Sequence record: NC_024142.2
Direction: 5' to 3' (one strand)
DNA: 64,000 nt
Source of the DNA: Escherichia phage Bp4
Shown here piece after piece: positions 1 through 64,000 of the stretch; positions within the stretch are counted from its first letter, which is position 1; each line of letters begins with the position of its first letter. Below the pieces are notes generated by a model, which worked only from the letters and a program-made list of their open reading frames with translations, did no database searches and was not told where the DNA came from. A program made the position numbers and the translations under genes.

Positions 1-2
1 TC

Positions 3-2015
3 TATTTTTCTGTAGGTGTAGACTTGGGTGGATACAAAGTCATTTATGATAAGACTACTCAACGCGCTTACTCATTGCCCGTACTTCCAGTAGGAACCAC
101 TGCTGTAAGTCTTAGTGAACATGCAGTCTTGGTTCATTCGGCAGGTACAGTTGATTTGGGTGAACTGGCTGCTGCACGTAGAGAGTTTGTATGCTTATCT
201 GATTCATTTACTACGGGCTTAGTAGTAAATACTCGAAATGAGCTTTTGATGCATAATGGTATTGGTTATACCTACTTAGGTTCTCTACCCGTAACTATTG
301 TTGAAGGGGCCAACCCTGTTGGCAACACGGATTGGAAGTCCCAAACGGATCCTAATTTGCGTGCTCAGTTGGCATCTCAGGATGGTATGACTTTAATTGG
401 TAGTGTACCCGACGTAACTGCCCTGGCTTCTGTTGGAGCAACAGTAGGGTCTAGTATAATGCTAGATTCGTACTCAGGCTCTTCCGTTGGTGGGGGTATT
501 ATGATTGCGGTTCCTAATACTACTCCTGTAGATGAAGTTGTAACTTTCACCGGTGCAGGAGTGGTCTGGAAGCGTAAGTTCTTTGATGGCACTGCTACGG
601 TATACGATGCAGGTTATACTGGTACGGGGGATATTGCCCCATTCATTAACAAGGTAAACTCTGCCGGTTACGATTGTCTTGTACCTACATCAGGGACTAT
701 TAGTACACCTATCTTACTGGATGTAGCTAAGGGGGCTTTAGTAGGAGCCAATAAGTGTACCCTTACGGAAATGGAAGGTGTAACAGGAGAGTATTATTTA
801 ACCGTAATCAATTCTAATACAGATTACACAGCCCGTGATGCCATTAATGCTACTGCCCTATTAACAGGTATTTCCTTTGTAGGTAAAGGTACTCGAAAGA
901 TGTGCTTGGGCAGTAGTACTGGAGGGGAGATAGCAGAATTACGTATATCTAACTGCGGGTTTATATCTACCGCAGGTATTGAGTTTAAAGATAATGCATA
1001 CCGTATCCTGTTTGATAAGTGCACCATTTCTCGCAGTTTTACTAACTCTGTAATCTTTAATTCCCCGGTTAATGCTGGTGAGGTTATAAAATTCAACCAC
1101 TGCTGGATGGTTGATAATGGGGGTCCATTTACATTTGAGAATGGGCAGTTCATCTTTGATTCATGCTCATTACCAGCAGGTAAAAAGGCAGGCTACTTCG
1201 ATCCAGTAGTGGCATTAAGTGATAATGCTACCTTAGTATTTGCTAACGGTAATATTGAGTATCAACCCGGGCAGAGTTTTGTAGGCTTTACTGTGAGTGG
1301 AAGCTCACGCCTCAGTATTAAAGATTCTACTATTCTGCTTCCAGAAGGCTACAGTACAGTGCCTATTGTTAGTAATGGTGATGGGGTAGTTAGTTTAAAT
1401 AACTGCTCATTGCCCCTCTACGGTAACACAACGATTGCTACTGGATTTGCTACAAGACAGTTGATAGGCGGTGCAAGTAAAAAAGTAATGTCCAGAGGGT
1501 GCTTCCCTCGTGCAGGATTTATTACAACTAACTGGAATCTAGGGAGCATTGTAAGCCCATATATTAATAGTATTAGCAATGGCTCAGGACAGTTTGGAAA
1601 TACATCTAACTGGACACTCTCGCAAACTGGAACAGGTGCTGTCACTGCTACTACAGCAAATGATGTTCCTAACGATTTAATGTTTACAACTTCTTTTGTT
1701 TTATCTGTACCATCAGCAGATGCAGCAGCTAACTTCACTCAAACAATCATTGATTGTGAACCGGGTCGTTATTTTCAGTTTGGTTTTTGGGCTAAAAATA
1801 CAACAACCACCTTGGCGTCAATTAGATTCCTGGACCAGCAAGGAAATGCTGTTGCGGATTCCATAGGATATATCATTCCAGTAGTAAACACGTTCAACTT
1901 TTACGCTTTGGTGGATTGCGTTCCTCCAGGAGCTTACAAAGCTGAAATTAATTTTAATGTTTCTTCAGTTGTTGGAGGCGTCGTAATACACAATGCAGTT
2001 TATGGATTGATTTAA
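3..2015 (+). CDS. tail fiber/tailspike-like structural protein, 5' end cut by window edge
   Basis: Frame is open from nt 3 with no upstream stop (ORF track 24..2015). Gly/Thr/Asn/Ser-rich, beta-rich sequence. Lies just upstream of the lysis cassette and is followed by a hairpin terminator. Confidence 0.5.
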   Translation, partial: YFSVGVDLGGYKVIYDKTTQRAYSLPVLPVGTTAVSLSEHAVLVHSAGTVDLGELAAARREFVCLSDSFTTGLVVNTRNELLMHNGIGYTYLGSLPVTIVEGANPVGNTDWKSQTDPNLRAQLASQDGMTLIGSVPDVTALASVGATVGSSIMLDSYSGSSVGGGIMIAVPNTTPVDEVVTFTGAGVVWKRKFFDGTATVYDAGYTGTGDIAPFINKVNSAGYDCLVPTSGTISTPILLDVAKGALVGANKCTLTEMEGVTGEYYLTVINSNTDYTARDAINATALLTGISFVGKGTRKMCLGSSTGGEIAELRISNCGFISTAGIEFKDNAYRILFDKCTISRSFTNSVIFNSPVNAGEVIKFNHCWMVDNGGPFTFENGQFIFDSCSLPAGKKAGYFDPVVALSDNATLVFANGNIEYQPGQSFVGFTVSGSSRLSIKDSTILLPEGYSTVPIVSNGDGVVSLNNCSLPLYGNTTIATGFATRQLIGGASKKVMSRGCFPRAGFITTNWNLGSIVSPYINSISNGSGQFGNTSNWTLSQTGTGAVTATTANDVPNDLMFTTSFVLSVPSADAAANFTQTIIDCEPGRYFQFGFWAKNTTTTLASIRFLDQQGNAVADSIGYIIPVVNTFNFYALVDCVPPGAYKAEINFNVSSVVGGVVIHNAVYGLI

Positions 2016-2024
2016 TTAAAACTA

Positions 2025-2048
2025 AGGCCCAAACTGGGCCTTTTCTTA
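2025..2048. terminator. bidirectional intrinsic terminator between convergent genes
   Basis: Hairpin AGGCCC-AAACT-GGGCCT followed by TTTTCTT on plus strand; sits between the plus gene ending 2015 and the minus gene ending 2046. Confidence 0.55.
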
Positions 2049-2699
2049 TATAGAGTTTACTGTTTGCATTACCTCAACCGATACTGCTGTTAGGGTAATT
2101 ACTTGCCCGGATAAGTTAAACATACCCAACTGAATACCATCTACCATGAAAGGGTCAGATGAACCAAGTGTGTAAGTAGCTAGTACGTTATCCCTATTAG
2201 CTATGTCCGTACCCTGTACCTTAACACTAGTGTCTGAACCAACTACTGTAGTTCCATTGGTTCGTCTTGTTTGTGTTCTCCATTCTCTTGCTGTACCAGC
2301 ACCTCCTGTAATAGTTCCTGATATACGTACACTGAACATTACCTGGGTATTCCTGGTTCTAATAGGGAATTTAAGATTACCTCCTTCAATTGTTAATGCT
2401 GCTGTACCCCCAGGTGATTTAGTTATCCATGGTAATGAAAAGTAATTGAGCCAGGACTGGTCATTTACTACCTGGCTCCCGGTCCATGTATACAAGTCCA
2501 GAAGGAAAGTATCTTCTAACTCTGTTGGTGGGATGGGTAGTAGTTCAGGGGGAAGCTCTGAAACGTTATTAGCAGAAACTATTCGTTCCCCATAGCTTCC
2601 CACGACCAACAAACCACCCTTCATTTTGCACACAACATCCTTACCACTTTGGAAAATATCTTTAATAGACATAGATACCTCGTAGTTGATACCAGACAC
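2046..2699 (-). CDS. hypothetical protein, convergent to tail gene
   Basis: 217-aa ORF with non-repetitive, protein-like composition. Internal ATG at 2675 is preceded by GAGG at correct spacing, so the true start may be 2675. Confidence 0.4.
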   Translation of the reverse strand: MSGINYEVSMSIKDIFQSGKDVVCKMKGGLLVVGSYGERIVSANNVSELPPELLPIPPTELEDTFLLDLYTWTGSQVVNDQSWLNYFSLPWITKSPGGTAALTIEGGNLKFPIRTRNTQVMFSVRISGTITGGAGTAREWRTQTRRTNGTTVVGSDTSVKVQGTDIANRDNVLATYTLGSSDPFMVDGIQLGMFNLSGQVITLTAVSVEVMQTVNSI

Positions 2700-2796
2700 T
2701 ATGTCTGGATGTACTCCATCATACTAAGTATTATCTAAGAGTCATCTTATGATACGACCCTATTGGGGTTTCTAACTTTACAACTACGGTAATATT

Positions 2797-3126
2797 ATGA
2801 ATGAATCGGGTGAACTGCTCCTAGTCAGACTGGAGGAACGATTGAAGACTCTGTTTGAGAACCATACAAGGGAAAGGCAGGACCGTGAGAAACTGGAGGA
2901 AACTCTGGTGGAACTACGGGATTCAATCAATGACATAGGCAATAGACTGAAAAATGTGGAGGATAGCTTAGCTAAGAATGAACCTACTATTGAAGAGTTC
3001 ATCACCATTAAGCATAAAGTTGTTGGTGCTGGAATTTTTGGTAAGTGGGTGTGGGCTGGGGCAGGTGCAATTATTGGTGTATTGGCTGCTGCAAGACGGG
3101 AGATATTCGCATGGTTCGCAGGCTAA
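2797..3126 (+). CDS. small coiled-coil protein with C-terminal hydrophobic segment (lysis cassette, holin/antiholin-like)
   Basis: 109-aa ORF; charged helical N-terminus and C-terminal stretch GAGIFGKWVWAGAGAIIGVLAAA. Confidence 0.4.
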   Translation: MNESGELLLVRLEERLKTLFENHTRERQDREKLEETLVELRDSINDIGNRLKNVEDSLAKNEPTIEEFITIKHKVVGAGIFGKWVWAGAGAIIGVLAAARREIFAWFAG

Positions 3127-3371
3127 AAAGAAAGGTAGAGCTAGTACCTAACTGGAAAAGATGCTGGAAGTGGGCATCCATCCAGATTAGTACGCTCGGG
3201 TTAATTATGTTTTCTGCCATAGATATCATTCAACCAATGCTGACAGGATTACCTCGTCACATCCTGGAAGATATTCCCCATGGCTCCAATATTGTAATCG
3301 CACTGTTTGCCTTAAACATCATAGGCAGATTAATACGATTCCGACCAAAGGAAGATTCACATGAAAGCTAA
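3111..3371 (+). CDS. putative holin with two predicted TM helices
   Basis: ATG at 3111 inside ORF track 3045..3371; two hydrophobic segments (ISTLGLIMFSAIDII and IVIALFALNIIGRLI); directly upstream of endolysin. Confidence 0.45.
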   Translation: MVRRLKRKVELVPNWKRCWKWASIQISTLGLIMFSAIDIIQPMLTGLPRHILEDIPHGSNIVIALFALNIIGRLIRFRPKEDSHES

Positions 3372-11196: not shown

Positions 11197-12333
11197 ATGG
11201 GCTTATTCAGTGGGAAGACTAAAGTATACGTAGCATCCTCTGTCTATAACATGGCAGGGGATATACACAAACGTCCTAACTATATGAAGACTGTAGTCAT
11301 CGGTAACATTGTTTCCAATACAGGATTCACTATGGCAGACACTATCTCTGATAGTTATCTGAATGGACCTGGTATTCGTATGCGATTGTTCTCCAGCTGG
11401 AGTAAGAACCACTATGATTCAGAAGTTGGTATGGCTGGTTCTTCGTTGGGTGTATTGGCTAAGATTGACCCTACTGTTATAGAGGGTCAAATTACACCAC
11501 CTGCTGGAGAGTCTGTCTATGTTCAGGCAGCAGAAATTGGCTTTGCTGACTTTGAGCAATGGTGTGACCAATATCTTTATGAAAATGCTCCTAGTCGAAT
11601 CATGGAACGATTCGACATAGACATCAATGAAGATACTAATGAAATTACTATGACCTCCCTGGATGGTGGTTCTACTATTAAATTCACACCTACTAACTTT
11701 GAACCAGGTGCTTTGTATCTCTATGCTGATTACTCATTCTATAAGTCCCCGTCTATCAATCCACCGGTAGAGGGACCGACTACTGTCTATGATGATGAGG
11801 ATGACTTACCTTCTACTTTGTTATGGACTACTGTTTCAAGTGATACAACAGCTAATACAACTAATCTCACTAAGACTATACAGACTCATTCTGTTTATTC
11901 TGATGGTAGACCAGATGAAGACAGTACTGTCACCGAACCAAGTGTAGATAACTGGAACTCTTACATTAAGGTTTACCGTAGAGGATTCACTGAAAAACCT
12001 GATGACGTAACTGTAGTTGTATCTGACAGGGTAATGACTCATAAAAAGTTTGGTGAGATTCAATCCAGTACTTCTGTAACTACCAATGTAGTTGATATAG
12101 GTGGTGGTGTTACTCGTACCGATACAATCACTACAACCACAGAGACACTGGTTCGTAAGTATTCCTCCCAGACTACTCGTACAGATACAGAGATGACTGC
12201 TGTTGGTACACCTAAGCTGCTTATCTATAAGCAGAACTCTGGTAACGTTGCACTAGACTCACTGTTCGATACCGAAGCTACTGATAACCGATTCTACCAT
12301 TCATTCCAATCAGGAATGATAAGCAATGGGTAG
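11197..12333 (+). CDS. virion protein, N-terminal part (probably continuous with 12525..13850 via a frame change)
   Basis: 378-aa ORF. The frame of the next ORF is open and protein-like from 12288, overlapping this ORF's 3' end. Confidence 0.5.
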   Translation: MGLFSGKTKVYVASSVYNMAGDIHKRPNYMKTVVIGNIVSNTGFTMADTISDSYLNGPGIRMRLFSSWSKNHYDSEVGMAGSSLGVLAKIDPTVIEGQITPPAGESVYVQAAEIGFADFEQWCDQYLYENAPSRIMERFDIDINEDTNEITMTSLDGGSTIKFTPTNFEPGALYLYADYSFYKSPSINPPVEGPTTVYDDEDDLPSTLLWTTVSSDTTANTTNLTKTIQTHSVYSDGRPDEDSTVTEPSVDNWNSYIKVYRRGFTEKPDDVTVVVSDRVMTHKKFGEIQSSTSVTTNVVDIGGGVTRTDTITTTTETLVRKYSSQTTRTDTEMTAVGTPKLLIYKQNSGNVALDSLFDTEATDNRFYHSFQSGMISNG

Positions 12334-12524
12334 AGAATGACCCAATCTATCCATACTGTAAGAAAGCTCTTTATAAAGCTACCGGTGGAAAAATTGATAA
12401 GGTAGTAACAGAGCTTAAGAAGAATGATGATATAGGTGATATTCAGTACATTTATGGCACATTTGGCGTATCTCTTAATACTCCTGAAGATACTGCTAAG
12501 GAATACATCTACCGTTTCTTTCAG

Positions 12525-13850
12525 ATGGCTACTGAAGCATTCCCACCTGACCCAACCTATCCAACCTTGGAGGCAGTGATTGCAGGTTATCAGGCAGCTA
12601 ATGATGCAGTTGATGCATATGTAGAATGGTGGAATAGGACTGAAGGGCACACTATTGGAACTCCTCCACCACTGCCAGAATACCCAGTCATACCTAAGAG
12701 AGAATTTAGGGTACATAGTAATAAGCATTACAAGTATGACATGACCATTGGTTGGAATTACGTATCTGAAACTACCCACTCAGGGCAAGCATGGTCTGGT
12801 GCTAAGCAAGGACAACTTCGAGCCAGGTATGCAGGGGATATAACTCTTACTCGCAAGAACATACGAACTGCTAGTAACTCCGGTTCAGCTAAGAAGTTAG
12901 AGGTTACCACTACATTCTATTCTATGCAGGAGTATGAACTGCTTTGGCAGGATGGTAATAACACTTACCGTAAACTCAGAGTACTGGGTCTAAATCACAA
13001 TAACAGGGTATATAAGAATAAGTCAGTGCATATTGATGTTGCCGAAGCAATGGGTGATGCAGAGGAGAGTGGGTTCATTATTCCACTACATACTAACATC
13101 TATCGTTCAATGTCACTGATTCGAAGTACTCAGCTATCCACTGCCTGCTCCTACTTAGTGATGAACTCATATAAGAAGGTTAAGCAGAAGTGGTATCAAA
13201 CATCTGCCTTTAAGATTGTGGTTGTTGTGGTTGCTGTCGTTGTATCCGTATTCACTATGGGTACTGGTGGTGCAGGTATACTTGGGGCATATGGAGCAGT
13301 TGGGGCGTCACTCGGTTTTGTTGGATTAGCTGCTGTAATAGTAGGTGCTGTAGCAAACGCCATTGCTGCAATGATTCTGGTATCTATTATCACTAAAGTA
13401 TCCACTTCACTCTTTGGTGATAAGCTAGGTTTTATCATTGCTGCTGTTGCTTCAATGGTAGCTATGAATGTTGGTACTGCTCTATCTACTGGTTCATCCT
13501 TATCTACCTTAGCCAGTGAAATGATGAATGCTCAGAACATCATGCAGCTTACCAGTTCAGTAGGTAATGGTATTAGCCAGTATATTAATGCATCTACGGC
13601 TGCTACTATTCAGAAAGCAGAGAAAGTAATGCAGCAGTACAATACTGATATGATGGCAATCAATAAGCAGTATGAAGAGATGTTTGGTACTGCTGGGCAG
13701 GGTGTAATTGACCCTATGCAATTTGTGTCAATGGAGTCGATGGATTCTTTCCTCTCACGTACTCTCATGACTGGTTCGGATATAGCTGACATGTCTTTAA
13801 ACATGATTGGAAGCTACTCTGATATGACTCTTAATACTGACCTTGTTTAA
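12525..13850 (+). CDS. virion protein with Gly/Ala/Val-rich membrane-like segment (possible internal/ejection protein)
   Basis: 441 aa; hydrophobic block VVVVVAVVVSVFTMGTGGAGILGAYGAVGASLGFVGLAAVIVGAV; open frame extends upstream to 12288 without a start codon. Confidence 0.5.
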   Translation: MATEAFPPDPTYPTLEAVIAGYQAANDAVDAYVEWWNRTEGHTIGTPPPLPEYPVIPKREFRVHSNKHYKYDMTIGWNYVSETTHSGQAWSGAKQGQLRARYAGDITLTRKNIRTASNSGSAKKLEVTTTFYSMQEYELLWQDGNNTYRKLRVLGLNHNNRVYKNKSVHIDVAEAMGDAEESGFIIPLHTNIYRSMSLIRSTQLSTACSYLVMNSYKKVKQKWYQTSAFKIVVVVVAVVVSVFTMGTGGAGILGAYGAVGASLGFVGLAAVIVGAVANAIAAMILVSIITKVSTSLFGDKLGFIIAAVASMVAMNVGTALSTGSSLSTLASEMMNAQNIMQLTSSVGNGISQYINASTAATIQKAEKVMQQYNTDMMAINKQYEEMFGTAGQGVIDPMQFVSMESMDSFLSRTLMTGSDIADMSLNMIGSYSDMTLNTDLV

Positions 13851-14319: not shown

Positions 14320-15186
14320 ATGGCTCAGATAACGTGGAGAAATGTTGATGCACCTAACTTCTCTGGAGTTGGTGACAGCATTCGCACATTTGGTAGCATG
14401 ATTGGTAACGCCACCTCCGGCTTAAGTGATGCACTGGGTAATTTCCAGAACGCTGCCAAGCAGGAGGCTGGCAATGCCGTCATGATGAATGCTATGCAGT
14501 ACCAAGACCCGAATGAGTACCGTAATGCTTTGGCATCTGGTGCACTGTTTCAGGGGGTTGATCCTTCACTGGTAAATCAGCGTACCCTCCAAAACCTGGA
14601 TGAACGAGCAGGTACATTACTGACACAACAAGGACAGCAGGGAACCAATGACTACATTGCTTATCGCTTTGGTCGTTTACAGGATACTAACACTGCATTA
14701 GATAATGCTTCCCCGGCTATTCGTTTACTGTCTGAGGCTTATCAGTCCGGTGACCAGAACCGTATTAATGCTGCATTAAGTCAGACCCGTGATGCACTGT
14801 CTGCACTCCCTGCTGACCAACAACTGGAGATGATGGGTCGTCTACAAGGTCAGGGTGGTCAGGCTATTAATCAGGCACAGAATCGTTTTGATTTAGGTGT
14901 TGCTCAACGTAATGATGCTGACAGTCAGGCAGCTATGGGTGTAATGTCACAGATTACCCGTGGTGCTGAGAACCTAATGATGCCCGTCTGTTGGCAGAAG
15001 CATACAGTAAGAACTTGTCCCCAGTTGCACAGGCACGTTTACAGAGTTTACTGGCTAGTACTTACCGGTGTATACGGCAATGGCGTAGGTGCTGCGTCTG
15101 CTCCTGGTACTGCTGGTACTCGTCAGGGTTCCCCTTACGATGTTACTTACCAGTTTGCCGGTACATCTACCCTATTACTCAAATGA
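14320..15186 (+). CDS. hypothetical virion protein
   Basis: 288-aa ORF; its stop overlaps the next start in an ATGA arrangement. Confidence 0.45.
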   Translation: MAQITWRNVDAPNFSGVGDSIRTFGSMIGNATSGLSDALGNFQNAAKQEAGNAVMMNAMQYQDPNEYRNALASGALFQGVDPSLVNQRTLQNLDERAGTLLTQQGQQGTNDYIAYRFGRLQDTNTALDNASPAIRLLSEAYQSGDQNRINAALSQTRDALSALPADQQLEMMGRLQGQGGQAINQAQNRFDLGVAQRNDADSQAAMGVMSQITRGAENLMMPVCWQKHTVRTCPQLHRHVYRVYWLVLTGVYGNGVGAASAPGTAGTRQGSPYDVTYQFAGTSTLLLK

Positions 15187-15446
15187 GTATTGGTGATGTA
15201 ATTAAACACCAGGATGGTATGAAGTCGAATCAAGGTGCTTCACCTGTTGGTGCATTCCAGATTAACCAAGCTACTCTGAAAGACTTCGCTCCCAAAGTTC
15301 TTGGTTCAGATTGGCAAAGCCAGCCTCTTTCTCCTGAGAACCAGGATAAGATTGGTAAGGCTATCTTCGAGTCTCGTAAGAACGGTAACCTTAAAGATAC
15401 TTGGGCTGCTCTGCCTAACTCTACCCAGGTGCTTATAAGGATATGA
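15183..15446 (+). CDS. hypothetical protein
   Basis: ATG at 15183 overlapping the upstream stop (ATGA); 87 aa reading MSIGDVIKHQ...; ORF track gives 14991..15446. Confidence 0.4.
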   Translation: MSIGDVIKHQDGMKSNQGASPVGAFQINQATLKDFAPKVLGSDWQSQPLSPENQDKIGKAIFESRKNGNLKDTWAALPNSTQVLIRI

Positions 15447-38078: not shown

Positions 38079-38086
38079 GTCGCTAA

Positions 38087-40050: not shown

Positions 40051-40169
40051 GCTTAGGTCATTAGGCAGCAGGTAGGTTTAATCATCTCCTCCCTTCGGAT
40101 TTGATGACCGAGGATAGCAATAGGATACTTACCCGTATCCTGAGAGGTGATGTAACGCATAGCCTTACC

Positions 40170-45196: not shown

Positions 45197-45297
45197 TTCA
45201 ACAAGTTTTTCTTTGTTGTCGTGTGGTCGATTCCGTAGAAAGTCATATGCCCATTCATATTCTGGTTTAAAAATCAGATTCTGTAATGGTTTGAAGG

Positions 45298-46680: not shown

Positions 46681-46697
46681 GAAGTTGAGGATAAGGC

Positions 46698-50321: not shown

Positions 50322-50476
50322 AAGAGTACCTATAATTAAAAAAGCCCACGGGTTAGGTGGGCTTGGGTTAGGAGATGGATAAGCAATGAGCTGGAAGCAA
50401 CTTCCACAAGCATCACTATGTAATGATGCTTAGGTTAGTTACTCTGCTTTACTACCACCGTTGGTTTGTACAACAG

Positions 50477-50716
50477 TTACATTTGTAACCTGGTTCTGCC
50501 TTTGTTGGACAGTGACCAAATCAGTGCTACTACCCAGAATACCAGTGACCAGCCTAATACTATATTAAGCACGCCAATGCCCCACTTAGAGGCATGGCCT
50601 CGTGCAAAAGCAATGATAGTAGGGATAAGGTATACAGCTAATATAAACAACATAACAAGGATTGCTGCTAAAGATTCCATGATGGTTCCTATGTGGGGTT
50701 GAGTTAGTTTCTTCAC
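50477..50716 (-). CDS. small membrane protein
   Basis: 79 aa, two hydrophobic segments. Confidence 0.4.
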   Translation of the reverse strand: MKKLTQPHIGTIMESLAAILVMLFILAVYLIPTIIAFARGHASKWGIGVLNIVLGWSLVFWVVALIWSLSNKGRTRLQM

Positions 50717-50972: not shown

Positions 50973-51479
50973 TTATTTACTGCTTCTTGCAGCTACTGGT
51001 TTGTTTTCCTGGTTCTGATACTTGCCATTGTAATTAGCAGGTTCCTGAACCAGATGAAATAATACTTGAGCTATCCCAGAACCAGCCGGGATATGCAGTT
51101 TCTTACGACCGTGATAGACAAGTTCGAGGGTAAGATACCCTTTCCATCCTGGTTCTATTACGGTATTGAACACAGATAATGCACGTCTTGCCCAGGTAGA
51201 CTTATCGTGAACGATGGCTACACAGGAAGGAGACATGTTGAACTTCTCAATTGCTGAAGCCAATGTGAACTTACCGAGATGGCGTGATACTTGATTTCCA
51301 TCAACGACTTTCACCATTGGAATCAACCCAAATAAGCGATAGAAGGTAATATCTTGTTTGATACGAATATCATAACCAGCTTCACCCAATCCATAGCTTA
51401 CACCATGCTCGGATACCTTACGGTCTGGGACATCCAGCAACTGAGATGAACGATAAAGAGAATTACCATTAACAACCAT
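50973..51479 (-). CDS. dCTP deaminase / dUTPase-family protein
   Basis: Motifs VSYGLGEAGYDIRI and PAGSGIAQV resemble the dCTP deaminase/dUTPase fold; 168 aa. Confidence 0.5.
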   Translation of the reverse strand: MVVNGNSLYRSSQLLDVPDRKVSEHGVSYGLGEAGYDIRIKQDITFYRLFGLIPMVKVVDGNQVSRHLGKFTLASAIEKFNMSPSCVAIVHDKSTWARRALSVFNTVIEPGWKGYLTLELVYHGRKKLHIPAGSGIAQVLFHLVQEPANYNGKYQNQENKPVAARSSK

Positions 51480-51997
51480 TATTTCATTCCTTTAGGGATA
51501 TGAACTACCTCCCCAAAAGGTACGGTAGCATTAGGATTATTCAGAACACACCAGATGATAGGAATATCAAATGGTAATTCTTTCATTGGGCGAACATACA
51601 TATCGGAGAATATGATTGCAGCGGTTGGCTTATTCTTAATAATCCAATCACGTACTGGTTCAAGGCTTGTACCACCACGACCAGTAATCTTAATCTCTTC
51701 AAAAGTATCTTCTTCAGTGATGTCTATTTCTTCCTGGATAATATCGTCGAAGGTAATTAGTGACATCTTCTTAGGATTGAACTGACTTTTAACGTAGGCG
51801 ACTTCTGAGTTAAAACGCAGAGAGTCAGCACTACTAATAGAACCAGATACATCCTCAAAGTAGGCTAAGTGACGTAGACGTCCTTCATCATCTTCTAAGG
51901 AAGGTAGATAGATGTCAGTGTAACGACGGTTGGGTCTGGCCCACGTATAATGTGTGTCATCAATGTCGGTAAAAAGTTCATCAGAACTTCCTGCCAT
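51479..51997 (-). CDS. von Willebrand factor A (vWA) domain protein
   Basis: MIDAS-like DVSGSIS and GRGGTSL motifs. Confidence 0.55.
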   Translation of the reverse strand: MAGSSDELFTDIDDTHYTWARPNRRYTDIYLPSLEDDEGRLRHLAYFEDVSGSISSADSLRFNSEVAYVKSQFNPKKMSLITFDDIIQEEIDITEEDTFEEIKITGRGGTSLEPVRDWIIKNKPTAAIIFSDMYVRPMKELPFDIPIIWCVLNNPNATVPFGEVVHIPKGMK

Positions 51998-52051
51998 GGA
52001 ACCACTGGTTTAAGGAATTGGGTAATAACCTCTTCCATACGACCAGCACCT

Positions 52052-52651
52052 TTACCAGGCATCTGTCCACCAGCCATTTTCTGGCTCTGCATTGCACGTA
52101 CTACGTTGTTGACAACAGCACCCTGGGACTGCCCGAAGTGGGGATTTCATGTCGCCAGCAAGACCTGCTCCAGCACCCCCTGACGGCTTCTGCCTTTTCT
52201 GAGGGTTCTTCATCAGGTCATCGTAGATGTCTTCTTCGACCCATCCTTTATATTGAGGGTCTTTGCAAATGCCTTCATCAATGCCAGTGAACTTGTAACC
52301 ATCTTCTTCTAACTGAAGGTTAATGAAGTGGTCACAAGCCTGGTTCCAGACTTCTGGGTCACGGCTTCCACGTCGGATGTCGTGTAGATATGCCACATGC
52401 CATAATTCATGCATAAGCACTGTTTCTCTTACATCTGGACACATCCAGATAAAGAAATCTGGGTTGAAATGGAGTTCTATCCCATCAGTACATGCAGTGG
52501 GACAATCCTCACGTTTCCATGAGAATTTAAGACTACACAGTAATGAACCAAAGAAGGCTGCGCTGCGACCTAAAAAAGCCTGCGCTTGGATTCTATCGTA
52601 CTCCCTCATTAGCTGCTCATCTGTGAGACTATGCGTAGGTATACTGTTCAT
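52052..52651 (-). CDS. putative zinc metallopeptidase-like protein (HExxH)
   Basis: HELWHVAYLH motif; partners with the vWA gene; C-terminal 30 aa look non-protein-like. Confidence 0.5.
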   Translation of the reverse strand: MNSIPTHSLTDEQLMREYDRIQAQAFLGRSAAFFGSLLCSLKFSWKREDCPTACTDGIELHFNPDFFIWMCPDVRETVLMHELWHVAYLHDIRRGSRDPEVWNQACDHFINLQLEEDGYKFTGIDEGICKDPQYKGWVEEDIYDDLMKNPQKRQKPSGGAGAGLAGDMKSPLRAVPGCCCQQRSTCNAEPENGWWTDAW

Positions 52652-52983
52652 TAGGGTGCTCCATGATTGGGGTGATAGCCATACAGTTTTTCAGCCGCTT
52701 TTCTGGCGTCTATGGCATCTTGCTTGTCTGCAAAAGTGCCCAAACTTACCAGACGTGTTCCATCAGATATAGCTGCATACCAGATGGAATCACGCTTGTG
52801 CCAGTACACACCAGTAACACCACTGGAATTAGTTACCCGTTTCTTTTGGTTTCTGGTGTTAGTTCTGCTGTCTACTAATCTAAAGTTACTTAGAAGGTTA
52901 TTAACCCTATTGTGGTCTAGGTGATCAATCTGCATACCTTTCGGGATAGGTCCATTGTGCATTTCCCATATGACACGGTGCAC
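52651..52983 (-). CDS. HNH homing endonuclease with AP2-like domain
   Basis: HNH box QIDHLDHNRVNN and AP2-like GVYWHKRDSIWYAAISDGTRLVSLGTFADKQDAIDARKAAEKLYG. Confidence 0.75.
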   Translation of the reverse strand: MHRVIWEMHNGPIPKGMQIDHLDHNRVNNLLSNFRLVDSRTNTRNQKKRVTNSSGVTGVYWHKRDSIWYAAISDGTRLVSLGTFADKQDAIDARKAAEKLYGYHPNHGAP

Positions 52984-53136
52984 TTTGTAACTTTTGCCCT
53001 TATAGTTGAAGCATAAATAACCATCGCTATTTAGATTACCTACCTTTTTCCAGCAATGCCTCTGGAGGCTACTGTAACTTTCCAGAATAGCTCCCCATTT
53101 ATGTAAACGAGTATGTCATTCCAGTTCATGTTGTGA

Positions 53137-53637
53137 TTACCCGTGAATGTAGCGAGAGATATTAGCAGCAGCCTTACGCCATTCAGGGGTAGCCTGAAGA
53201 TCTGGTAATGCATTGCCTACTGTACGGAAGTACAGAATCTTATGGGTGAACGTTTTAAAGCGTTCAATATACTGAAGAACATCAGCAAAGTTTTCTTCAG
53301 TAGTTTTGTTAGCCAGATGGTTAACGGTAGCCCAACACAGGTTGTTATCTTCTGGTAGTGCACAACCCATAGGGTCTTTGACTACTTTTTCAATCGTAAT
53401 GATACGATTGTATACCTGAGTGAACTGAACAAACTCTGTAGCCTTACCAGCAGTAACGTGACCTGAATAGTAGATAGAATCTTCATCAGGAAGAGCACCT
53501 TCTGGTAAGTTCTTGAGGTCTTTATTAACAAAGTCCCAAGTACGAGGGCAACAGAACGTTTTGTTCTTATGTGCTGGGTCGAAGTCATGCAGATAACCAG
53601 GGTTAGCATGTAAGAATGCAACCAGACGTTCATCCAT
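53137..53637 (-). CDS. AAA+ ATPase, C-terminal part (after frame change)
   Basis: 166-aa ORF whose frame is open from about 53645; continues the ATPase in the -1 frame. Confidence 0.5.
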   Translation of the reverse strand: MDERLVAFLHANPGYLHDFDPAHKNKTFCCPRTWDFVNKDLKNLPEGALPDEDSIYYSGHVTAGKATEFVQFTQVYNRIITIEKVVKDPMGCALPEDNNLCWATVNHLANKTTEENFADVLQYIERFKTFTHKILYFRTVGNALPDLQATPEWRKAAANISRYIHG

Positions 53638-54188
53638 TGCTGAGGAATCATTACATCTTCAACAAAGATGTCGAAGTTAAGTTCCATTTCAAAGTGAACC
53701 ACACGAGACTGCATTGCAGTACCCAGTGGGTTAACAATGGCACGGTCAGTAGCTTTGTTACCAGCACAGACAATCATCACATTAGGATGAAGTTTTTTCT
53801 GACCAGTCATACGGTCTAGAATCAGTTTATATGCAGCAGCTACTACTTCTTTCTTAGCTGAGTTGAACTCATCAAGGAATAAGAGCCAGCCATTATACCC
53901 TTCTGGTAATTCATCTCCCTCAATTGGGAATAAGTCAGCGAATGGAATAAACTCTGCACGGTCACCATTACGGAATGGTAAGCCAGAAAGGTCTTCCGGG
54001 GCAGAAGTTGACAGACGATGGTCTATCAACTTCATACCAAATTCTTCTGCAATAGAACGAATGATTGCAGATTTACCCATGCCAGGTGATGAAGTCAGGA
54101 ACGGTACGTTACCTGCTTTCAAAGCACGGATAATAAAGTTACGAGCTTGACGTGAATTACATACGGTCAAGGAGTCAATGCTTGCCAT
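53382..54188 (-). CDS. AAA+ ATPase, N-terminal part (real coding probably ends near 53640)
   Basis: Walker A SSPGMGKSAI and Walker B LLFLDEFN; after VHFEMELNFDIFVEDV the ORF becomes low-complexity (likely out of frame). Confidence 0.6.
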   Translation of the reverse strand: MASIDSLTVCNSRQARNFIIRALKAGNVPFLTSSPGMGKSAIIRSIAEEFGMKLIDHRLSTSAPEDLSGLPFRNGDRAEFIPFADLFPIEGDELPEGYNGWLLFLDEFNSAKKEVVAAAYKLILDRMTGQKKLHPNVMIVCAGNKATDRAIVNPLGTAMQSRVVHFEMELNFDIFVEDVMIPQQWMNVWLHSYMLTLVICMTSTQHIRTKRSVALVLGTLLIKTSRTYQKVLFLMKILSTIQVTLLLVRLQSLFSSLRYTIVSLRLKK

Positions 54189-55386: not shown

Positions 55387-55446
55387 TTCCTGGCTCCAGA
55401 TGTAGAAAACCCAGTCAATGCTGGGGTTTATCTATCAGTTTATACT

Positions 55447-55707
55447 TTATAGACCATGTGGTCGGCATAGACTACCCGAACCAAACGAACGGTGTCCAAG
55501 TCGGCCCAGGATTAGATTGCTTACTTCAGCAGCAGCACGACTGAATGCTTTAAAGTCAAAAACTACGATACCAAAGAGTGGGGCTGCAATAGCAGCTACC
55601 ATGATTGGAGTCAGGTCAACCAGTGACATACCCAAGATTAAGTGAGCAGCGTAGGCAATAATACCCATTCCAACACCACAACCATATCCAATAGCAATTT
55701 TACGCAT
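55447..55707 (-). CDS. small membrane protein
   Basis: 86 aa, Gly/Ala/Ile-rich hydrophobic segments. Confidence 0.4.
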   Translation of the reverse strand: MRKIAIGYGCGVGMGIIAYAAHLILGMSLVDLTPIMVAAIAAPLFGIVVFDFKAFSRAAAEVSNLILGRLGHRSFGSGSLCRPHGL

Positions 55708-55777
55708 AGTTACCTTCTTAGTTAGTAAGTTGATTTACATATTCATATAACAGACAAACAATAGTCAAAAAAGACTC

Positions 55778-55802
55778 CCTTCAATAGGGAGGTCAAGCTT
55801 GA
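55778..55802 (-). terminator. intrinsic terminator (minus-strand sense)
   Basis: Hairpin GACCTCCC-TATTGAA-GGGAGTC followed on the minus strand by TTTTTT. Confidence 0.5.
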
Positions 55803-55844
55803 GGGTTTTATTTCAGGGTTTATAACCCCAAACAAAGGATACTC

Positions 55845-56723
55845 TTATTCTGCAACAGTAACAGGGATAGTTACATCGACCGTACCATTGGTAACTACTA
55901 CAGAAGTAGCTTCACCAGCAGCCACTGGTTTAACTGTCAGTACGTTACCAGCAATGGTAGCCGTAGCACGAGCAGAATCTGGAGCAGTCTTGATAGACAA
56001 AGTACCAGCAGATGAACCAACGGGCATAGCAACAATTGTTACGGTCTTACCAGCAGCAAGATCATCAGCAACAGACAGAGCCAGTGAAGCAGGAGTAGCT
56101 ACCAGTGAACTTGCTTCGTAATAGCCTACAGCTAATAGTGATTCATCCTCTACCGTGGTTCCATTAGCATCAGTAACAATCACTTTGTAAGTACCAGCAG
56201 AAGTAGCTGTTACGTCATTAAGAGTCAGTGTTGCAGTAGCAGCGGATTCGTTCTCACCTGAATCAATATCAGCGAATGCTGCTCCAGCAGTATCAGCTTT
56301 GAATTGCCATTTATAAGTAAATGGTGCTTTCCCACCTGCTACATCAACGTGCCAGTTGATGTCTTCACCTTCGATAGTAGAGACTACACGAGGCAGTTTG
56401 GTAGCAATAGTCAGTCGTGGGGTAGCTTTCATATCAATAGAGATAGACTGCATATCCACAATGTTGTTAGGCCAGAAGCCTGCTTTACTTGGGTCTTTAG
56501 CAGAACGTTTATACAGCAGGTCACGAACACCATGATAGATAACTAAGCTATCTGGGTAAGTGGCATCTGGGTGTTCAAAAGTTCCTACTTCTATGGAACC
56601 ACCTGGGATAGAACCACTGGCATCCAGTACAGTTGCAACATTAGTGGTTTTGTTAAAACCTACTTTCAAAGTTGGCATATCAATTTCCTCATAAGTAAAT
56701 AGCAGAGTTAGTATACATGACAT
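55845..56723 (-). CDS. Ig-like domain protein (capsid decoration protein candidate, N4 gp17-like by position)
   Basis: Thr/Ala/Val-rich beta-strand repeats (TYKVIVTDANGTTVE, TVTIVAMPVGSSAGT); located right after the RNAP II genes. Confidence 0.45.
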   Translation of the reverse strand: MSCILTLLFTYEEIDMPTLKVGFNKTTNVATVLDASGSIPGGSIEVGTFEHPDATYPDSLVIYHGVRDLLYKRSAKDPSKAGFWPNNIVDMQSISIDMKATPRLTIATKLPRVVSTIEGEDINWHVDVAGGKAPFTYKWQFKADTAGAAFADIDSGENESAATATLTLNDVTATSAGTYKVIVTDANGTTVEDESLLAVGYYEASSLVATPASLALSVADDLAAGKTVTIVAMPVGSSAGTLSIKTAPDSARATATIAGNVLTVKPVAAGEATSVVVTNGTVDVTIPVTVAE

Positions 56724-56727
56724 GTAA

Positions 56728-56756
56728 AAAATAAACCCTCCGTTAGGAGGGTTAGT
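56728..56756 (-). terminator. intrinsic terminator (minus-strand sense)
   Basis: Hairpin AACCCTCC-GTTA-GGAGGGTT followed on the minus strand by TATTTTTT. Confidence 0.5.
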
Positions 56757-56967
56757 TGTTTACACAGTAGATAGCAAAAGCTATCCATCCTGCCATTACA
56801 AAGCAGCCTAGTGAGTATGCTCCATAGTAGTAATAAGCAAACTTAGATTTGTGGGCATGAACTATTGTAGACAGAACCAGTACAGATAAAACTATCAGTA
56901 TTAACTGAGAGATTACTTCAAAAGGGATTAGCATAGTTGTTACCTCCAAGCAAAAAATATGCCTCAC
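56752..56967 (-). CDS. small membrane protein
   Basis: 71 aa, two hydrophobic helices. Confidence 0.4.
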   Translation of the reverse strand: MRHIFCLEVTTMLIPFEVISQLILIVLSVLVLSTIVHAHKSKFAYYYYGAYSLGCFVMAGWIAFAIYCVNN

Positions 56968-56991
56968 TCCCGAAGGAATGAGGCTAGTTTA

Positions 56992-58239
56992 TTAACTCAA
57001 CGCATAGTCTGTTTCAAGAATGTCCTGCCAGAGGCTGTCATCCAGCTTACCAGCAGAGAACTCTTGCCCCAGTACCTGAGACAGGATGAAGCCCAGTAGG
57101 TCACTCTTAGCAATATCAGACAGGATCTGATTGTACTGACGACGCAGGTCATTACCGTAGTTAGGATGGCAACGGAAGCAGTCATGTACAGTCATTACAG
57201 GGAATGGTTTCTTAGGCAGAGTGTCAATCATATCTGCTACTACCTGACGGTCTACATAAGCAATAGTACATGGGTCAAGATAGTCCAGGATGGATAAAGA
57301 TAAGAAGCCAGACTTCTCATAATGGCTCCATAGCTCTTGTACCTTCTCCAGATTACCTGCAATCTCCCCATATTCTGATGGACCTTCATCACAGAGTTCT
57401 CGCACAGCTTCCACTAAGTCACGGTCGAAGTTACAACGACGCAGCATCTCACGTACCACCATCCCATCAATAGAGTGGGTGATGTTAGCAGAGAGCATAC
57501 GAGTCTTCTCTTCAGTACCCTGAACCATACGAGTAATGTCGAACGGTTTGCCTAAGAAGTTAACAGTCTGTACTTCTGGAACCATGACCTTAATGACAGC
57601 GTGGAAGTTGTCAGGAAGTATCCATATGTAACGGTTGGCATCTGGATTACCACATTGCAGTAAGAACTTGTTCAATGCCCAAGGACCACTAGCAACAGTT
57701 TCCATTACATTCTCAAAAGTCTTGAGACGAATACCTTCACCGAATACTTCTTTAGGCTTGGCTTCTGAGCCGTAGAACGCAGTCATAACTGCCTGCTTAG
57801 TGTCACTACGTTTAATACGAGATGCTTCACCAAGGATGTCCAACATCTTGTGATAGATGACTGTATAAGCATCACGACGTAATGGCTTACCATTCTCACC
57901 CATGTAATTAACTACGTTACACAGTTCAGCAGCAGAGCGGTCACCCGTCAGACAAGCCAGTAATTGCAAGCCAGATGATGTAGCATCCAGAGCTACGGCA
58001 TAACCAATAGGCTTACCTGCTTTCATATCTTTCCATGCATTTACACCAGCATAGAACAGTGCAGAATCTTCAGCTTCATCTACCAGATTAAGCAGGTTAG
58101 CTTCGTTCTCATCGAACCAGGCAATACGCTCATCCCATGTCTTTTTATCCAGACCATAGTTATTGGCGATATCTACTTTCAGGTATTGTTTAGCGGTTAA
58201 CAGTTGCATTTTATGTTCCTTTTGCTTCTTGCTCCCCAC
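56992..58239 (-). CDS. phage RNA polymerase II large subunit (T7-like single-subunit RNAP catalytic half, N4 gp16-like)
   Basis: T7-like motifs: ALDATSSGLQLLA (motif A), RSDTKQAVMTAFYGS (motif B), TVHDCFRCH (motif C). Confidence 0.8.
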   Translation of the reverse strand: MGSKKQKEHKMQLLTAKQYLKVDIANNYGLDKKTWDERIAWFDENEANLLNLVDEAEDSALFYAGVNAWKDMKAGKPIGYAVALDATSSGLQLLACLTGDRSAAELCNVVNYMGENGKPLRRDAYTVIYHKMLDILGEASRIKRSDTKQAVMTAFYGSEAKPKEVFGEGIRLKTFENVMETVASGPWALNKFLLQCGNPDANRYIWILPDNFHAVIKVMVPEVQTVNFLGKPFDITRMVQGTEEKTRMLSANITHSIDGMVVREMLRRCNFDRDLVEAVRELCDEGPSEYGEIAGNLEKVQELWSHYEKSGFLSLSILDYLDPCTIAYVDRQVVADMIDTLPKKPFPVMTVHDCFRCHPNYGNDLRRQYNQILSDIAKSDLLGFILSQVLGQEFSAGKLDDSLWQDILETDYALS

Positions 58240-59548: not shown

Positions 59549-59934
59549 GAGAAGGTTCCCCAGTAGATATAGTCATCTCCCAGAATAGGCTTCCAGGCTT
59601 CGTCAAACATGACATTGCCTGTAGCATTGGCAAACATAGGAGCAATATCTTCATCCTTATAACCAGCTAATCCACAACCAATACGTGTTACTTTAAAGTC
59701 CCACTCTGGGTGGGCTGCTGCGTATAGAATGAAGGATGCTACGAATGTCTTAATGTCCTTTAACGGCATAGTCTTGATTGACTGGTCTTTGGTTGGGATT
59801 GCATAGCTGCAACCATAATGGCCTACGCCCATACCCCAACGAGCACCATGCTTCTTATATGCAACTTTCGCTGCACCAGCGCCGTGACGTCCTGCTAAAT
59901 TACTTCCGAATACGAAGATTTCTTTCATTTGCAC
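59545..59934 (-). CDS. hypothetical protein with Gly-rich nucleotide-binding-like motif
   Basis: FVFGSNLAGRHGAGAAKVA and GCSYAIPTKD motifs; 129 aa. Confidence 0.4.
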   Translation of the reverse strand: MQMKEIFVFGSNLAGRHGAGAAKVAYKKHGARWGMGVGHYGCSYAIPTKDQSIKTMPLKDIKTFVASFILYAAAHPEWDFKVTRIGCGLAGYKDEDIAPMFANATGNVMFDEAWKPILGDDYIYWGTFS

Positions 59935-60105
59935 AATTTCCTGTTGTAGTTGTAAGCCTCTTGTTGAGTCATACTTGTATTAGCATGAGTTAGCTCCAAA
60001 TACGTCAGAGCATATTCATGTCACGCTGTTCCTTCTTGGTTCGGCAATGACCACATTTACCATCCCATTGGGATACATGGCCTTTACCACATTTGCATTG
60101 TTTGT

Positions 60106-60369
60106 TCATTTAAAAGTACTCCATGGTATGGACTCCAAGTAATTAATTTTGTAAATAATCTTACTTCTTATTTCTCCACCAACATCTTGTACATGGATTA
60201 GGTTTAACCTTTGTGCTTGGGTTATAGTAGCTGCAAGAGTTCTCCCCATAATATTTGATATTTCTATAAAAGATTTATTGGATTCTACTAGTATCTTTAA
60301 ATTAGTATTATCTAAGTTACTCCACTCTTTAGAATGATTTGCTGGCTTATCCATTAGGATTCTCCACAA
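60106..60369 (-). CDS. hypothetical early protein
   Basis: 87-aa ORF. Confidence 0.4.
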   Translation of the reverse strand: MWRILMDKPANHSKEWSNLDNTNLKILVESNKSFIEISNIMGRTLAATITQAQRLNLIHVQDVGGEIRSKIIYKINYLESIPWSTFK

Positions 60370-63408: not shown

Positions 63409-63421
63409 TTACATCATCCAT

Positions 63422-63438
63422 AAGACGCGGAGCGTCTT
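63422..63438 (-). promoter_or_regulatory. hairpin promoter candidate (N4 vRNAP-type), AAGACGC-GGA-GCGTCTT
   Basis: 7-bp stem with 3-nt GGA loop on the template (plus) strand, immediately upstream of the gene starting at 63408. Confidence 0.5.
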
Positions 63439-63533
63439 GGTTTTTAGAAGTAGAAGTAAAGTAGATAGTTATCTACTTTTGACTATCTATCTAATGTTCA
63501 AAACAGGAGACTCCGAAGAGCCTCCCAGGTGAC

Positions 63534-63857
63534 TTAGTCTTTAGTCAGGATGTCGATTACTTTGGAATATTCTGCGTTATAGATACGAGCGTTCTCTGAA
63601 TCCTTGCAGAATTCCTCGATACTTTTCTTACGCAGAGTCTCAGTCATAGCTGTTTCCTCTGCCAGTTTATTAACAAAGGTATGCATTTCTAATTTAGTAC
63701 GAATGGCTTGTTTCTCTGCCATAGTACTTACATATGAATTAAGCATACCTACTGCTTTAGTTGCTGTACCGAAGGTATCTGCAACAGTAGTAGCAGCTGA
63801 GTTAACAGTACCAAGTAAAGTTCCTGCGGTCATACGTACAGTAGCTTGAGTAGTCAT
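63534..63857 (-). CDS. hypothetical early protein
   Basis: 107-aa ORF, Ala/Thr-rich helical protein. Confidence 0.4.
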   Translation of the reverse strand: MTTQATVRMTAGTLLGTVNSAATTVADTFGTATKAVGMLNSYVSTMAEKQAIRTKLEMHTFVNKLAEETAMTETLRKKSIEEFCKDSENARIYNAEYSKVIDILTKD

Positions 63858-63899
63858 GATGATAGCTCCAATAGTTGATGATAGGACGACATGTCCATA

Positions 63900-63914
63900 A
63901 CATGCGGAGCATGT
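63900..63914 (-). promoter_or_regulatory. hairpin promoter candidate (N4 vRNAP-type), ACATGC-GGA-GCATGT
   Basis: 6-bp stem, GGA loop, same GCGGAGC core; about 45 nt upstream of the gene starting at 63857. Confidence 0.45.
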
Positions 63915-64000
63915 GTAACGTGTAAGGTGGGGTAGGGTAGTGGCTACACCGTCAACATACCGGGGGGGATGGTTGAGTGTAAGGGTGTAGCCCCAGCCAC

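Follow-up and report, generated by a model that had tools for sequence, protein, structure and literature searches.

Frame breaks in a 64,000-nucleotide Gamaleyavirus sequence most probably reflect bases lost in sequencing or consensus building

Are the conserved genes that appear broken in the window (the whole stretch of DNA that was analysed, 64,000 nucleotides) really interrupted in the phage, are they expressed by recoding, or were bases lost between the DNA and its written sequence? The breaks recur in several genes and always have the same direction. The sequence-only reading had ascribed them to single-base deletions, and it preferred a systematic sequencing or assembly artefact, or a defective genome copy, to coordinated recoding. 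We conclude, with a probability of about 93%, that the frame breaks are a sequencing or consensus artefact, and neither recoding nor the mark of a decayed genome.

The window corresponds to the genome of Escherichia phage PD38 (Gamaleyavirus, N4-like E. coli phage), in the orientation opposite to that of the record MH669274.1. The exact comparison over 64,033 aligned columns gave 34 one-base deletions, no insertions, and 3 substitutions, which bears out the claim of recurring same-direction breaks from single-base losses; the probability of such a 34:0 bias between deletions and insertions is 1e-10 (binomial). Every frame break corresponded to a lost base, with the part 3' of the break in the −1 frame. 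In total, 21 deletions fell within 12 annotated CDSs (five in the gp51-like gene, three each in DNA polymerase and DUF2201, two in rIIA, and one each in primase, gp24 AAA ATPase, gp53-like, HNH, and four small ORFs), and 13 were intergenic. The genes previously named as broken are all split in the window, but the count was too low: 12 CDSs were struck, and the DNA polymerase, described as broken twice, has three breaks. The primase, the gp51-like, DUF2201, and HNH genes, the four small ORFs, and the 13 intergenic deletions had been missed. The features are listed below, with each change given from the PD38 record to the window.

4486-6756: portal gene, full length.
8371-9573: capsid gene, full length.
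11197..13850, plus strand: gp53-like virion protein (884 aa when intact), split at 12297 (CCC to CC) into ORFs 11197-12333 and 12525-13850.
14320..16279, plus strand: gp51-like virion protein (654 aa when intact), 5 bases lost, at 14973 (CCC to CC), 15067 (CCCGGG to CCGG, 2 nt), and 15170 and 15424 (both CCCC to CCC); pieces 14320-15186, 14991-15446, and 15443-16279.
16303: intergenic loss of one T (T6 to T5) from the T-tail that follows the hairpin GCCCTACGGGGC, a short way upstream of the virion RNA polymerase gene.
16373..27085, plus strand: virion RNA polymerase (vRNAP, 3570 aa), intact.
27671..30069: tRNA/intergenic cluster of six deletions, at 27671 (CC to C), 29163 (single C), 29753 (CCC to CC), 29758 (GGGG to GGG), 29956 (G6 to G5), and 30069 (T6 to T5).
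30059-30228, minus strand: small ORF, with the 30069 deletion in codon 54 of 56.
33111..35263, minus strand: DNA primase (717 aa, PriCT_1), split at 35023 (TTT to TT) into 35000-35320 and 33111-35003.
37584..40160, minus strand: family-A DNA polymerase (859 aa), split at 40077 (T4 to T3, codon 29), 38526 (C6 to C5, codon 546), and 38149 (T5 to T4, codon 672); pieces 38365-40050, 38087-38560, and 37584-38078.
44951..47516, minus strand: rIIA (855 aa, HATPase_c_3), split at 46733 (GGG to GG) and 45303 (CCC to CC); pieces 46698-47516, 45298-46680, and 44951-45196.
48289: intergenic A run, A6 in the window, A8 in the PD38 record, and A7 in relatives, truly ambiguous.
48319-48557, minus strand: small ORF, with a deletion at 48550 (T6 to T5, codon 3).
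50439..50680, minus strand: superinfection-immunity gene (80 aa, Imm_superinfect), frameshift at 50499 (CCC to CC).
51479..52651, minus strand: gp25-like DUF2201 metallopeptidase/VWA gene (391 aa), three deletions, at 52140 (G5 to G4), 52135 (C4 to C3), and 51971 (A6 to A5); pieces 52052-52651 and 51479-51997.
52651..53129, minus strand: HNH homing endonuclease (159 aa), frameshift at 53045 (T6 to T5).
53137..54188, minus strand: gp24 AAA ATPase (350 aa), split at 53634 (CCC to CC) into 53382-54188 and 53137-53637.
55410..58231: five intergenic deletions, at 55410 (CCCC to CCC), 55773 (A7 to A6), 55775 (CC to C), 56726 (A7 to A6, a run whose length varies among relatives), and 58231 (GG to G).
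59925..60109, minus strand: small hypothetical ORF (61 aa), frameshift at 60020 (GG to G).

The genes that had been read as intact are so: the vRNAP translation is identical to the PD38 protein, and portal and capsid are full length. The DUF2201 gene loses a net 3 nt and regains its frame, yet about 56 codons are garbled, with a stop among them. The tRNA predictions were unaffected by the deletion cluster around them.

The same gene splits were recovered independently of annotation, by tblastn with the ORFs of ECBP1 and St11Ph5 as queries (four pieces for the DNA polymerase, three for rIIA, and two each for primase, gp24 AAA ATPase, and gp53-like). The same search found no frameshift splits in the deposited PD38 record; apparent frame splits of PD38 against St11Ph5 were rejected, as they consisted of HNH insertions beside stop-to-stop ORF extensions. 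The substitutions also inform on the nature of the window. At two of the three sites it has the allele of the relatives and the allele of the PD38 record is private, and the third, a synonymous change at 26536 in the vRNAP gene, is private to the window. Thus, the window is an independent read-out and not merely a degraded copy of the GenBank record, an option that we discarded.

We then considered the deletion sites in 20 independent genomes and contigs, drawn from other laboratories' genomes and from metagenome and Logan assemblies. Among 257 site comparisons, 233 had the length of the PD38 record and 13 that of the window. None of these 13 lay inside conserved genes, where all comparisons were record-like: 4/4 relatives for the gp53-like gene, 12/12 for primase, 12/12 for gp24, 12/12 and 16/16 for the two rIIA sites, and all those compared (10-11 of 10-11) for the polymerase sites. 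Around the gp51-like sites, PE007 is 100% identical to the PD38 record. The relatives likewise agree with this record at the intergenic sites 27671, 29163, 55773, 55775, and 58231. Coherently, independent Illumina-era contigs encode intact proteins of the expected kind (ATPase, 350 aa; rIIA, 855 aa; polymerase, 859 aa; primase, 717 aa), and rIIA is an 855-aa protein in eight further contigs.

The deletions are strongly associated with homopolymer runs: 33 of the 34 occurred in runs of two or more bases, and the sole exception is the single C at 29163, adjoining CCTGG. The share of shortened runs was 0.04% for runs of 2, 0.5% for 3, 1.6% for 4, 2.4% for 5, 28% for 6, and 60% for 7 or more. A loss probability that rises so steeply with run length is a hallmark of under-calling, or of a consensus that drops insertions. 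Intergenic runs were shortened 12 times against 7.1 expected from the run classes; coding DNA was thus not spared, and there is no sign of selection. Essential genes were even struck more than once. The spread along the window is uneven, with no deletions in 1-12296 (5.3 expected) and none in the vRNAP gene (about 4.4 expected; simulation P = 0.014); a simple error process acting uniformly would not give this. Moreover, many deletions affect short C/G runs of 2-4 bases, targets that are not typical of every homopolymer-error platform. Sequence-context causes were evaluated and rejected: the CTACCC(C) context (three sites in the window and two outside) was weakly enriched (Fisher p = 0.04), and proximity to Dcm CCWGG sites was not enriched around the deletions (2 observed vs about 1 expected).

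A second public sequence, phage Uz-1 (OP312987.1), has the same junctions. The window corresponds to positions 8584-72583 of its 72,583, and the two align over 64,000 columns with 3,811 mismatches and no gaps (94% identity). Against PD38, Uz-1 gives a single HSP with 100% coverage, no insertions, and 39 tiny deletions; it lacks the same 34 columns within the window and seven more beyond it. True relatives at 3.8-7.3% divergence, used as controls, behave very differently, with 8-19 HSPs, 88-92% coverage (8-12% is unalignable), and balanced indels (18/21, 69/67, 26/20, and 71/82; 39-153 events), many of them multiples of 3. A gap-free alignment at 94% identity, unlike the balanced indels of these relatives, indicates a template common to the two sequences. 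Uz-1 thus provides no independent confirmation of the junctions of the window, for which, at face value, it would be high-accuracy support.

Two sites are informative on how this may have come about. The column at 38526 is absent from Uz-1 too, even though this haplotype does not carry a C6 run at that position. At 16303, Uz-1 retains T6 but drops a T of the adjacent TTT, so that its length equals that of the window, as expected if reads were forced onto too short a frame. In reference-guided consensus building, substitutions are applied, any base that the template lacks is discarded, and stretches without coverage are filled from the template. A consensus constrained in this way resembles our case in the gap-free relationship over 64 kb at 94% identity and in the lack of the same column even at a position where the haplotype has no run; it explains the spread between records and not the first origin of the deletions. 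Mismatch-free blocks of 0.5-3 kb between Uz-1 and the window are found at accessory loci (the tailspike, the tRNA region, and the two HNH genes) and at rIIA, and the 217-aa ORF of the first block occurs only in the PD38 and Uz-1 records. Such blocks may be retained template, but recent recombination could also yield them.

Among 15 billion proteins, those that Uz-1 itself encodes as portal, vRNAP, and helicase were found only in its NCBI record, and its polymerase, primase, rIIA, gp24, and gp53 proteins, repaired in silico, had no exact match. Sequence searches for the source of the window itself were likewise negative: a 25-mer spanning a deletion had no hit in IMG/VR, a 26-mer had none in JGI metagenomes or GTDB genomes, complete E. 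coli genomes contained no match, and exact look-ups of the truncated polymerase (561 aa) and rIIA (460 aa) fragments retrieved nothing. Errors of this kind are not normally produced by Illumina sequencing. According to the announcement of Uz-1 (PMC9670874), its genome was sequenced on an Illumina MiSeq and the 72,583-bp contig was assembled de novo with SPAdes. This published method does not explain how the template came to lack these bases, and the literature that we found, namely the announcement and phylogeny listings, makes no mention of the frameshifts.

According to the reading that we favour, the window would be a read-out of the PD38 phage genome minus 34 bases, nearly all lost one per run of identical bases, which would still be present in the phage DNA. 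The cause would be technical, lying in a platform or software step such as homopolymer under-calling or a consensus step that discards inserted columns. Each loss in a gene places the downstream part in the −1 frame and so generates the apparent recurring breaks. The frame with missing columns would then have passed into OP312987.1, where a truly different haplotype (about 6% substitutions) appears to be painted on the coordinates of the window; the PD38-shaped gene content suggests that a window-like sequence was the template of Uz-1, and not the reverse. Homopolymer indel errors in draft consensus sequences of the flow-based or nanopore type are a close parallel, being limited to runs, steeply dependent on their length, of one direction, blind to coding status, and missing from other, independent sequences of the genome concerned. 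The parallel is imperfect in the many short C/G runs, and in that the sole publication on this frame states Illumina and SPAdes.

It could be argued that the bases are truly absent from the DNA, through mutation in a defective or decaying genome copy or in a damaged laboratory stock, since replication slippage also prefers homopolymers and increases with run length, and identical junctions occur in two public sequences. We consider this very improbable, and the corresponding suggestion of the sequence-only reading is not favoured. Decay should leave a mixed spectrum, and 34 deletions with no insertions and 3 substitutions are not one; a DNA polymerase broken three times together with a broken primase is incompatible with a plaque-forming lytic phage. 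In addition, no natural genealogy fits a sequence that its indels group with Uz-1 and its substitutions with PD38 (3 vs 3,811), and the end of the window falls in the virion terminal repeat, which is the layout of a packaged genome and not of an integrated remnant. Even less credit can be given to the idea that the window is right and that the PD38 record was over-corrected by submitters who added bases to mend frames. The private alleles of PD38 at two of the three substitution sites do show that this record is not error-free, but its runs are also the longer ones at the 13 intergenic sites, which offer no reading frame to mend, and relatives of other origin side with it in most comparisons, intergenic sites included.

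Programmed recoding, that is, expression of these genes by −1 ribosomal frameshifting or transcriptional slippage, appears extremely unlikely, despite the uniform −1 direction and the location of several breaks in runs. None of the 12 coding breaks examined has an X_XXY_YYZ heptamer within ±15 nt. The coding runs struck span 2-6 nt, are mostly C/G, and do not reach the length needed for slippage, and runs of 7-8 nt were struck solely in intergenic DNA, so that no broken gene shows at its break the long A/T run (about 8 or more) of this mechanism. Homologs in the 20 relatives continue through exactly these codons without a break, and the two-frame layout is thus not conserved; one gene would require three successive shifts and another four to five, and 13/34 events are intergenic, where recoding is meaningless. 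Known programmed −1 frameshifting, such as that of the tail-assembly chaperone G/GT, resembles the window only in the direction of the frame change, and differs from it in slippery heptamer, conservation, shifts per gene, and the absence of intergenic events. The preference for a technical artefact over recoding is therefore upheld by the run dependence, the absence of the breaks from PD38 and the 20 relatives, the intergenic hits, and the lack of slippery motifs. It is likewise hardly credible that, as the Uz-1 announcement would literally imply, the PD38/Uz-1 lineage really has the short runs in its DNA. If they were, a viable lytic phage would rely on at least a dozen non-canonical −1 recoding events without slippery motifs, and would express its polymerase, primase, rIIA, and virion proteins through them. 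A two-piece polymerase annotation is also known from Gamaleyavirus genomes split by a homing endonuclease (SP5M, where one fragment has 654 aa, and contig L033); there, an HNH gene separates the pieces (654 aa + HNH + 276 aa), whereas the window shows no insertion but the loss of single bases.

Biologically the breaks have no import, as the phage genes are almost certainly ordinary and intact. The finding is ordinary too, yet relevant for annotation: no fewer than 12 genes and about 25 ORFs of at least 80 aa in the window should be read as fragments or artefacts, and PD38 (MH669274.1) is the repaired reference with which any ORF close to one of the 34 sites should be compared. Two database records that agree and have a common template do not confirm each other. 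The annotation of OP312987.1 already carries a split "DNA polymerase", a split "DNA primase", and fragments mislabelled as "rIIB-like", and such fragments have entered the protein databases, for example, the 561-aa "DNA polymerase" UWJ04337.1.

The ORF map of the window has an ORF of 3,576 aa and the late and early gene arrangement of an N4-like podovirus, and megablast matched the window, in reverse orientation and at ~100% identity, to Escherichia phage PD38 (MH669274.1; Schitoviridae, Gamaleyavirus), with matched spans longer in the record than in the query (20,011 bases against 20,001, and 16,006 against 16,000). The base-by-base comparison over 64,033 aligned columns found 3 substitutions and 34 one-base gaps, each gap being a base missing from the window; 12 CDSs contain 21 of these deletions, and the other 13 are intergenic.

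Deletions in coding sequences (window positions)
12297: gp53-like virion protein (1 deletion)
14973, 15067 (2 nt), 15170, 15424: gp51-like virion protein
30069: 56-aa ORF
35023: primase
40077, 38526, 38149: DNA polymerase
46733, 45303: rIIA
48550: 79-aa ORF
50499: superinfection-immunity gene
52140, 52135, 51971: DUF2201 gp25-like gene
53045: HNH endonuclease
53634: AAA ATPase gp24
60020: 61-aa ORF

The gene identities are backed by the Pfam domains AAA, DNA_pol_A, HATPase_c_3, PriCT_1, DUF2201, HNH_3, and Imm_superinfect. An annotation-free tblastn scan with all long ECBP1 and St11Ph5 ORFs showed each of the same genes divided among two to four frames of the window, and with these ORFs no true gene split was found in the PD38 record. 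Thus, the recurring frame breaks proposed by the sequence-only reading are confirmed and, with 34 deletions, are more extensive than it reported. The direction was also correct, the downstream part lying in the −1 frame after each lost base, and the genes it described as intact are so: the vRNAP protein is identical to that of PD38, and portal and capsid are both full length.

Five of the affected genes are each one unbroken CDS in PD38, namely DNA polymerase I (2,580 nt), rIIA (2,568 nt), primase (2,154 nt), gp24-like (1,053 nt), and gp53-like (2,655 nt), and the length of each is unchanged in ECBP1, St11Ph5, and ShWW44. For the DUF2201 gp25-like gene (window 51479-52651, record 11357-12532), the PD38 annotation uses an internal start at 11594, which gives 312 aa; relatives have the complete ORF of 391 aa, whose start corresponds to record 11357 and immediately follows an HNH gene specific to PD38. 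Some Gamaleyaviruses carry a naturally split DNA polymerase, with parts of 654 and 276 aa and an HNH endonuclease gene inserted (contig L033, 1541-4815; protein P0050 of phage SP5M). That split is a real interruption by HNH insertion, whereas the breaks of the window are single-base artefacts.

Every site was compared in the complete genomes of four relatives, each from a different laboratory (ECBP1, St11Ph5, PE007, and ShWW44), and the comparison was widened to a set of 20 independent sequences, made up of genomes and metagenome/Logan contigs found via exact-protein look-ups. Among the site comparisons over the 20 genomes/contigs, 233 supported the record length, 13 the window length, and 11 neither, and all 24 non-record comparisons were confined to four sites.

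Sites with non-record lengths among relatives (window positions)
29956: divergent G-run loop
48289: A6 in the window and A8 in the record; of 12 relatives compared, 11 have A7 and one has the window length
48550 and 56726: T/A runs, polymorphic among relatives

DNA polymerase, primase, rIIA, gp24, DUF2201, gp53, and gp51 have the record length in all relatives at every site. Independent contigs encode a 350-aa ATPase, an 855-aa rIIA, an 859-aa polymerase, and a 717-aa primase.

Of the three substitution sites, two have the same allele in the window and in all relatives, with the record alone differing, and the third has an allele private to the window; therefore, the window represents an independent reading of a genome of PD38 type. 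The possibility that it is a corrupted version of the GenBank record was rejected on the alleles at these three sites. Phage vB_EcoS_Uz-1 (OP312987.1, hereafter Uz-1) agrees with the window and all relatives at the sites of the two private PD38 alleles, which may be base errors in MH669274.1 or mutations private to it.

Private alleles of the PD38 record
window 1058 (record 62976): L vs F in the tailspike
window 54887 (record 9119): T vs A in a 69-aa ORF

The deletions follow run content. Of the 34, 33 shortened a run of identical bases, and the fraction of runs shortened rose from 0.003% for single bases to 0.04% (2-mers), 0.5% (3-mers), 1.6% (4-mers), 2.4% (5-mers), 28% (6-mers), and 60% for runs of at least 7; G/C runs accounted for 22 and A/T runs for 11. 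The imbalance between 34 deletions and 0 insertions has p = 1e-10. Intergenic deletions numbered 12, against 2.4 expected by length alone and 7.1 expected by run length and base class (p = 0.05). As the deletions track run content and coding DNA is not depleted of them, they bear no trace of selection. Their spread is uneven: none occurs in 1-12296 (~5.3 expected from run content) or in the 10.7-kb vRNAP gene (~4.4 expected), which lies in the deletion-free stretch 16304-27670; simulation gave P = 0.014 for these two gaps, the largest ones. The unevenness may reflect uneven coverage or partial polishing. The context CTACCC(C) precedes 5 of 41 deletions, those of Uz-1 outside the window included (window 12290-12300, 15163-15173, and 15417-15427; Uz-1 1346 and 2126); this weak enrichment (Fisher p = 0.04) may point to a systematic error tied to that context. 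Two deletion sites (48280-48300 and 55765-55785) share a recurring intergenic motif, which on the (−) strand, the sense strand of the genes, reads GGGAGGTC and then T7-8.

The frame breaks are thus present in the sequence, and we estimate at about 0.93 the probability that they are artefacts of sequence production, an interpretation that the sequence-only reading had preferred over recoding and that the run-length pattern, the record lengths of the relatives, and the recoding test support. A decaying or defective genome copy is highly unlikely, given a spectrum of 3 substitutions vs 34 deletions and 0 insertions, and given viability, with the polymerase broken three times and the primase once. 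The chance that the PD38 record was over-corrected and the window is right appears slighter still, since record and relatives also concur at intergenic sites, which have no reading frame to restore. Programmed recoding has practically no claim: no X_XXY_YYZ heptamer lies near any of the 12 coding breaks, the runs at coding sites are of 2-6 nt and mostly C/G, the homologues are uninterrupted, and one third of the events are intergenic.

One further public record, that of Uz-1, is annotated with the same gene fragments at the same coordinates. The whole window corresponds to Uz-1 8584-72583, precisely the final 64,000 nt of the 72,583-nt record, with 3,811 mismatches, 0 gaps, and 94% identity. 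Uz-1 carries the 34 missing columns plus, outside the window, seven further one-base deletions and nothing else; the two public copies of each record are identical. Its substitutions fall at third codon positions in 75-87% of cases, create no stops, and are about half common to other relatives, and look like real divergence. Uz-1 aligns to PD38 in one piece with 100% coverage of PD38, and this alignment contains 39 deletion events, no length among them divisible by three, and 0 insertions; true relatives that diverge by 3.8-7.3% align in 8-19 pieces with 88-92% coverage and insertions/deletions of 18/21, 69/67, 26/20, and 71/82, many of them multiples of three. The window groups with Uz-1 by indels and with PD38 by substitutions (3 vs 3,811 differences), a conflict that no natural genealogy yields.

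Two sites point to a coordinate frame common to both sequences. At 38526, Uz-1 reads GCCTCC-AA, with the same column missing in a haplotype without the C6 run. At 16303, it keeps T6 and has lost a T from the neighbouring TTT, as is expected if full-length reads are forced onto a template one base short. Mismatch-free blocks of 0.5-3 kb include the tailspike, both HNH genes, the tRNA region, and part of rIIA; a 217-aa ORF of the first block was found, among ~15 billion proteins, only in the PD38 and Uz-1 records.

Mismatch-free blocks between the window and Uz-1 (window positions)
1-2960
36191-37027
44684-47096
47533-48559
52617-53139
53920-55796

The Uz-1 announcement describes Illumina MiSeq reads, Genome Detective, and SPAdes giving a 72,583-bp contig, then re-assembly with "raw reads and the contig"; a reference-guided step is absent from the description (PMC9670874). 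A look-up of repaired full-length Uz-1 proteins in read-level assemblies turned up no independent assembly of the Uz-1 reads. Uz-1 is therefore treated as sharing a template with the window, which would most parsimoniously be a sequence of PD38 shape resembling the window, and not as independent confirmation. With its template-identical blocks at accessory genes, the Uz-1 genome appears to be a consensus forced into a PD38-shaped frame, and its split CDSs ("DNA polymerase" ×2, "DNA primase" ×2, "rIIB-like" ×3) are likely artefacts; two of the three "rIIB-like" CDSs are in fact rIIA pieces. No new biology follows, and the value lies in annotation hygiene for the window and the Uz-1 record.

The last 411 nt of the window (63590-64000) also align to Uz-1 1-411 at 93% and are the direct terminal repeat of the virion genome, for which a length of 469 bp is reported (PMC9670874). 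Both ends of the Uz-1 record carry the repeat, though the record is labelled circular.

ARAGORN predicted three phage tRNAs, unaltered by neighbouring deletions.

28426-28500, − strand: tRNA-Ile(AAT)
29202-29280, − strand: tRNA-Cys(ACA)
29572-29643, − strand: tRNA-Ala(CGC)

Two of the three have unusual A34 anticodons, and the second (ACA) is named "tRNA-Pseudo-ACA" in the ECBP1 RefSeq record.
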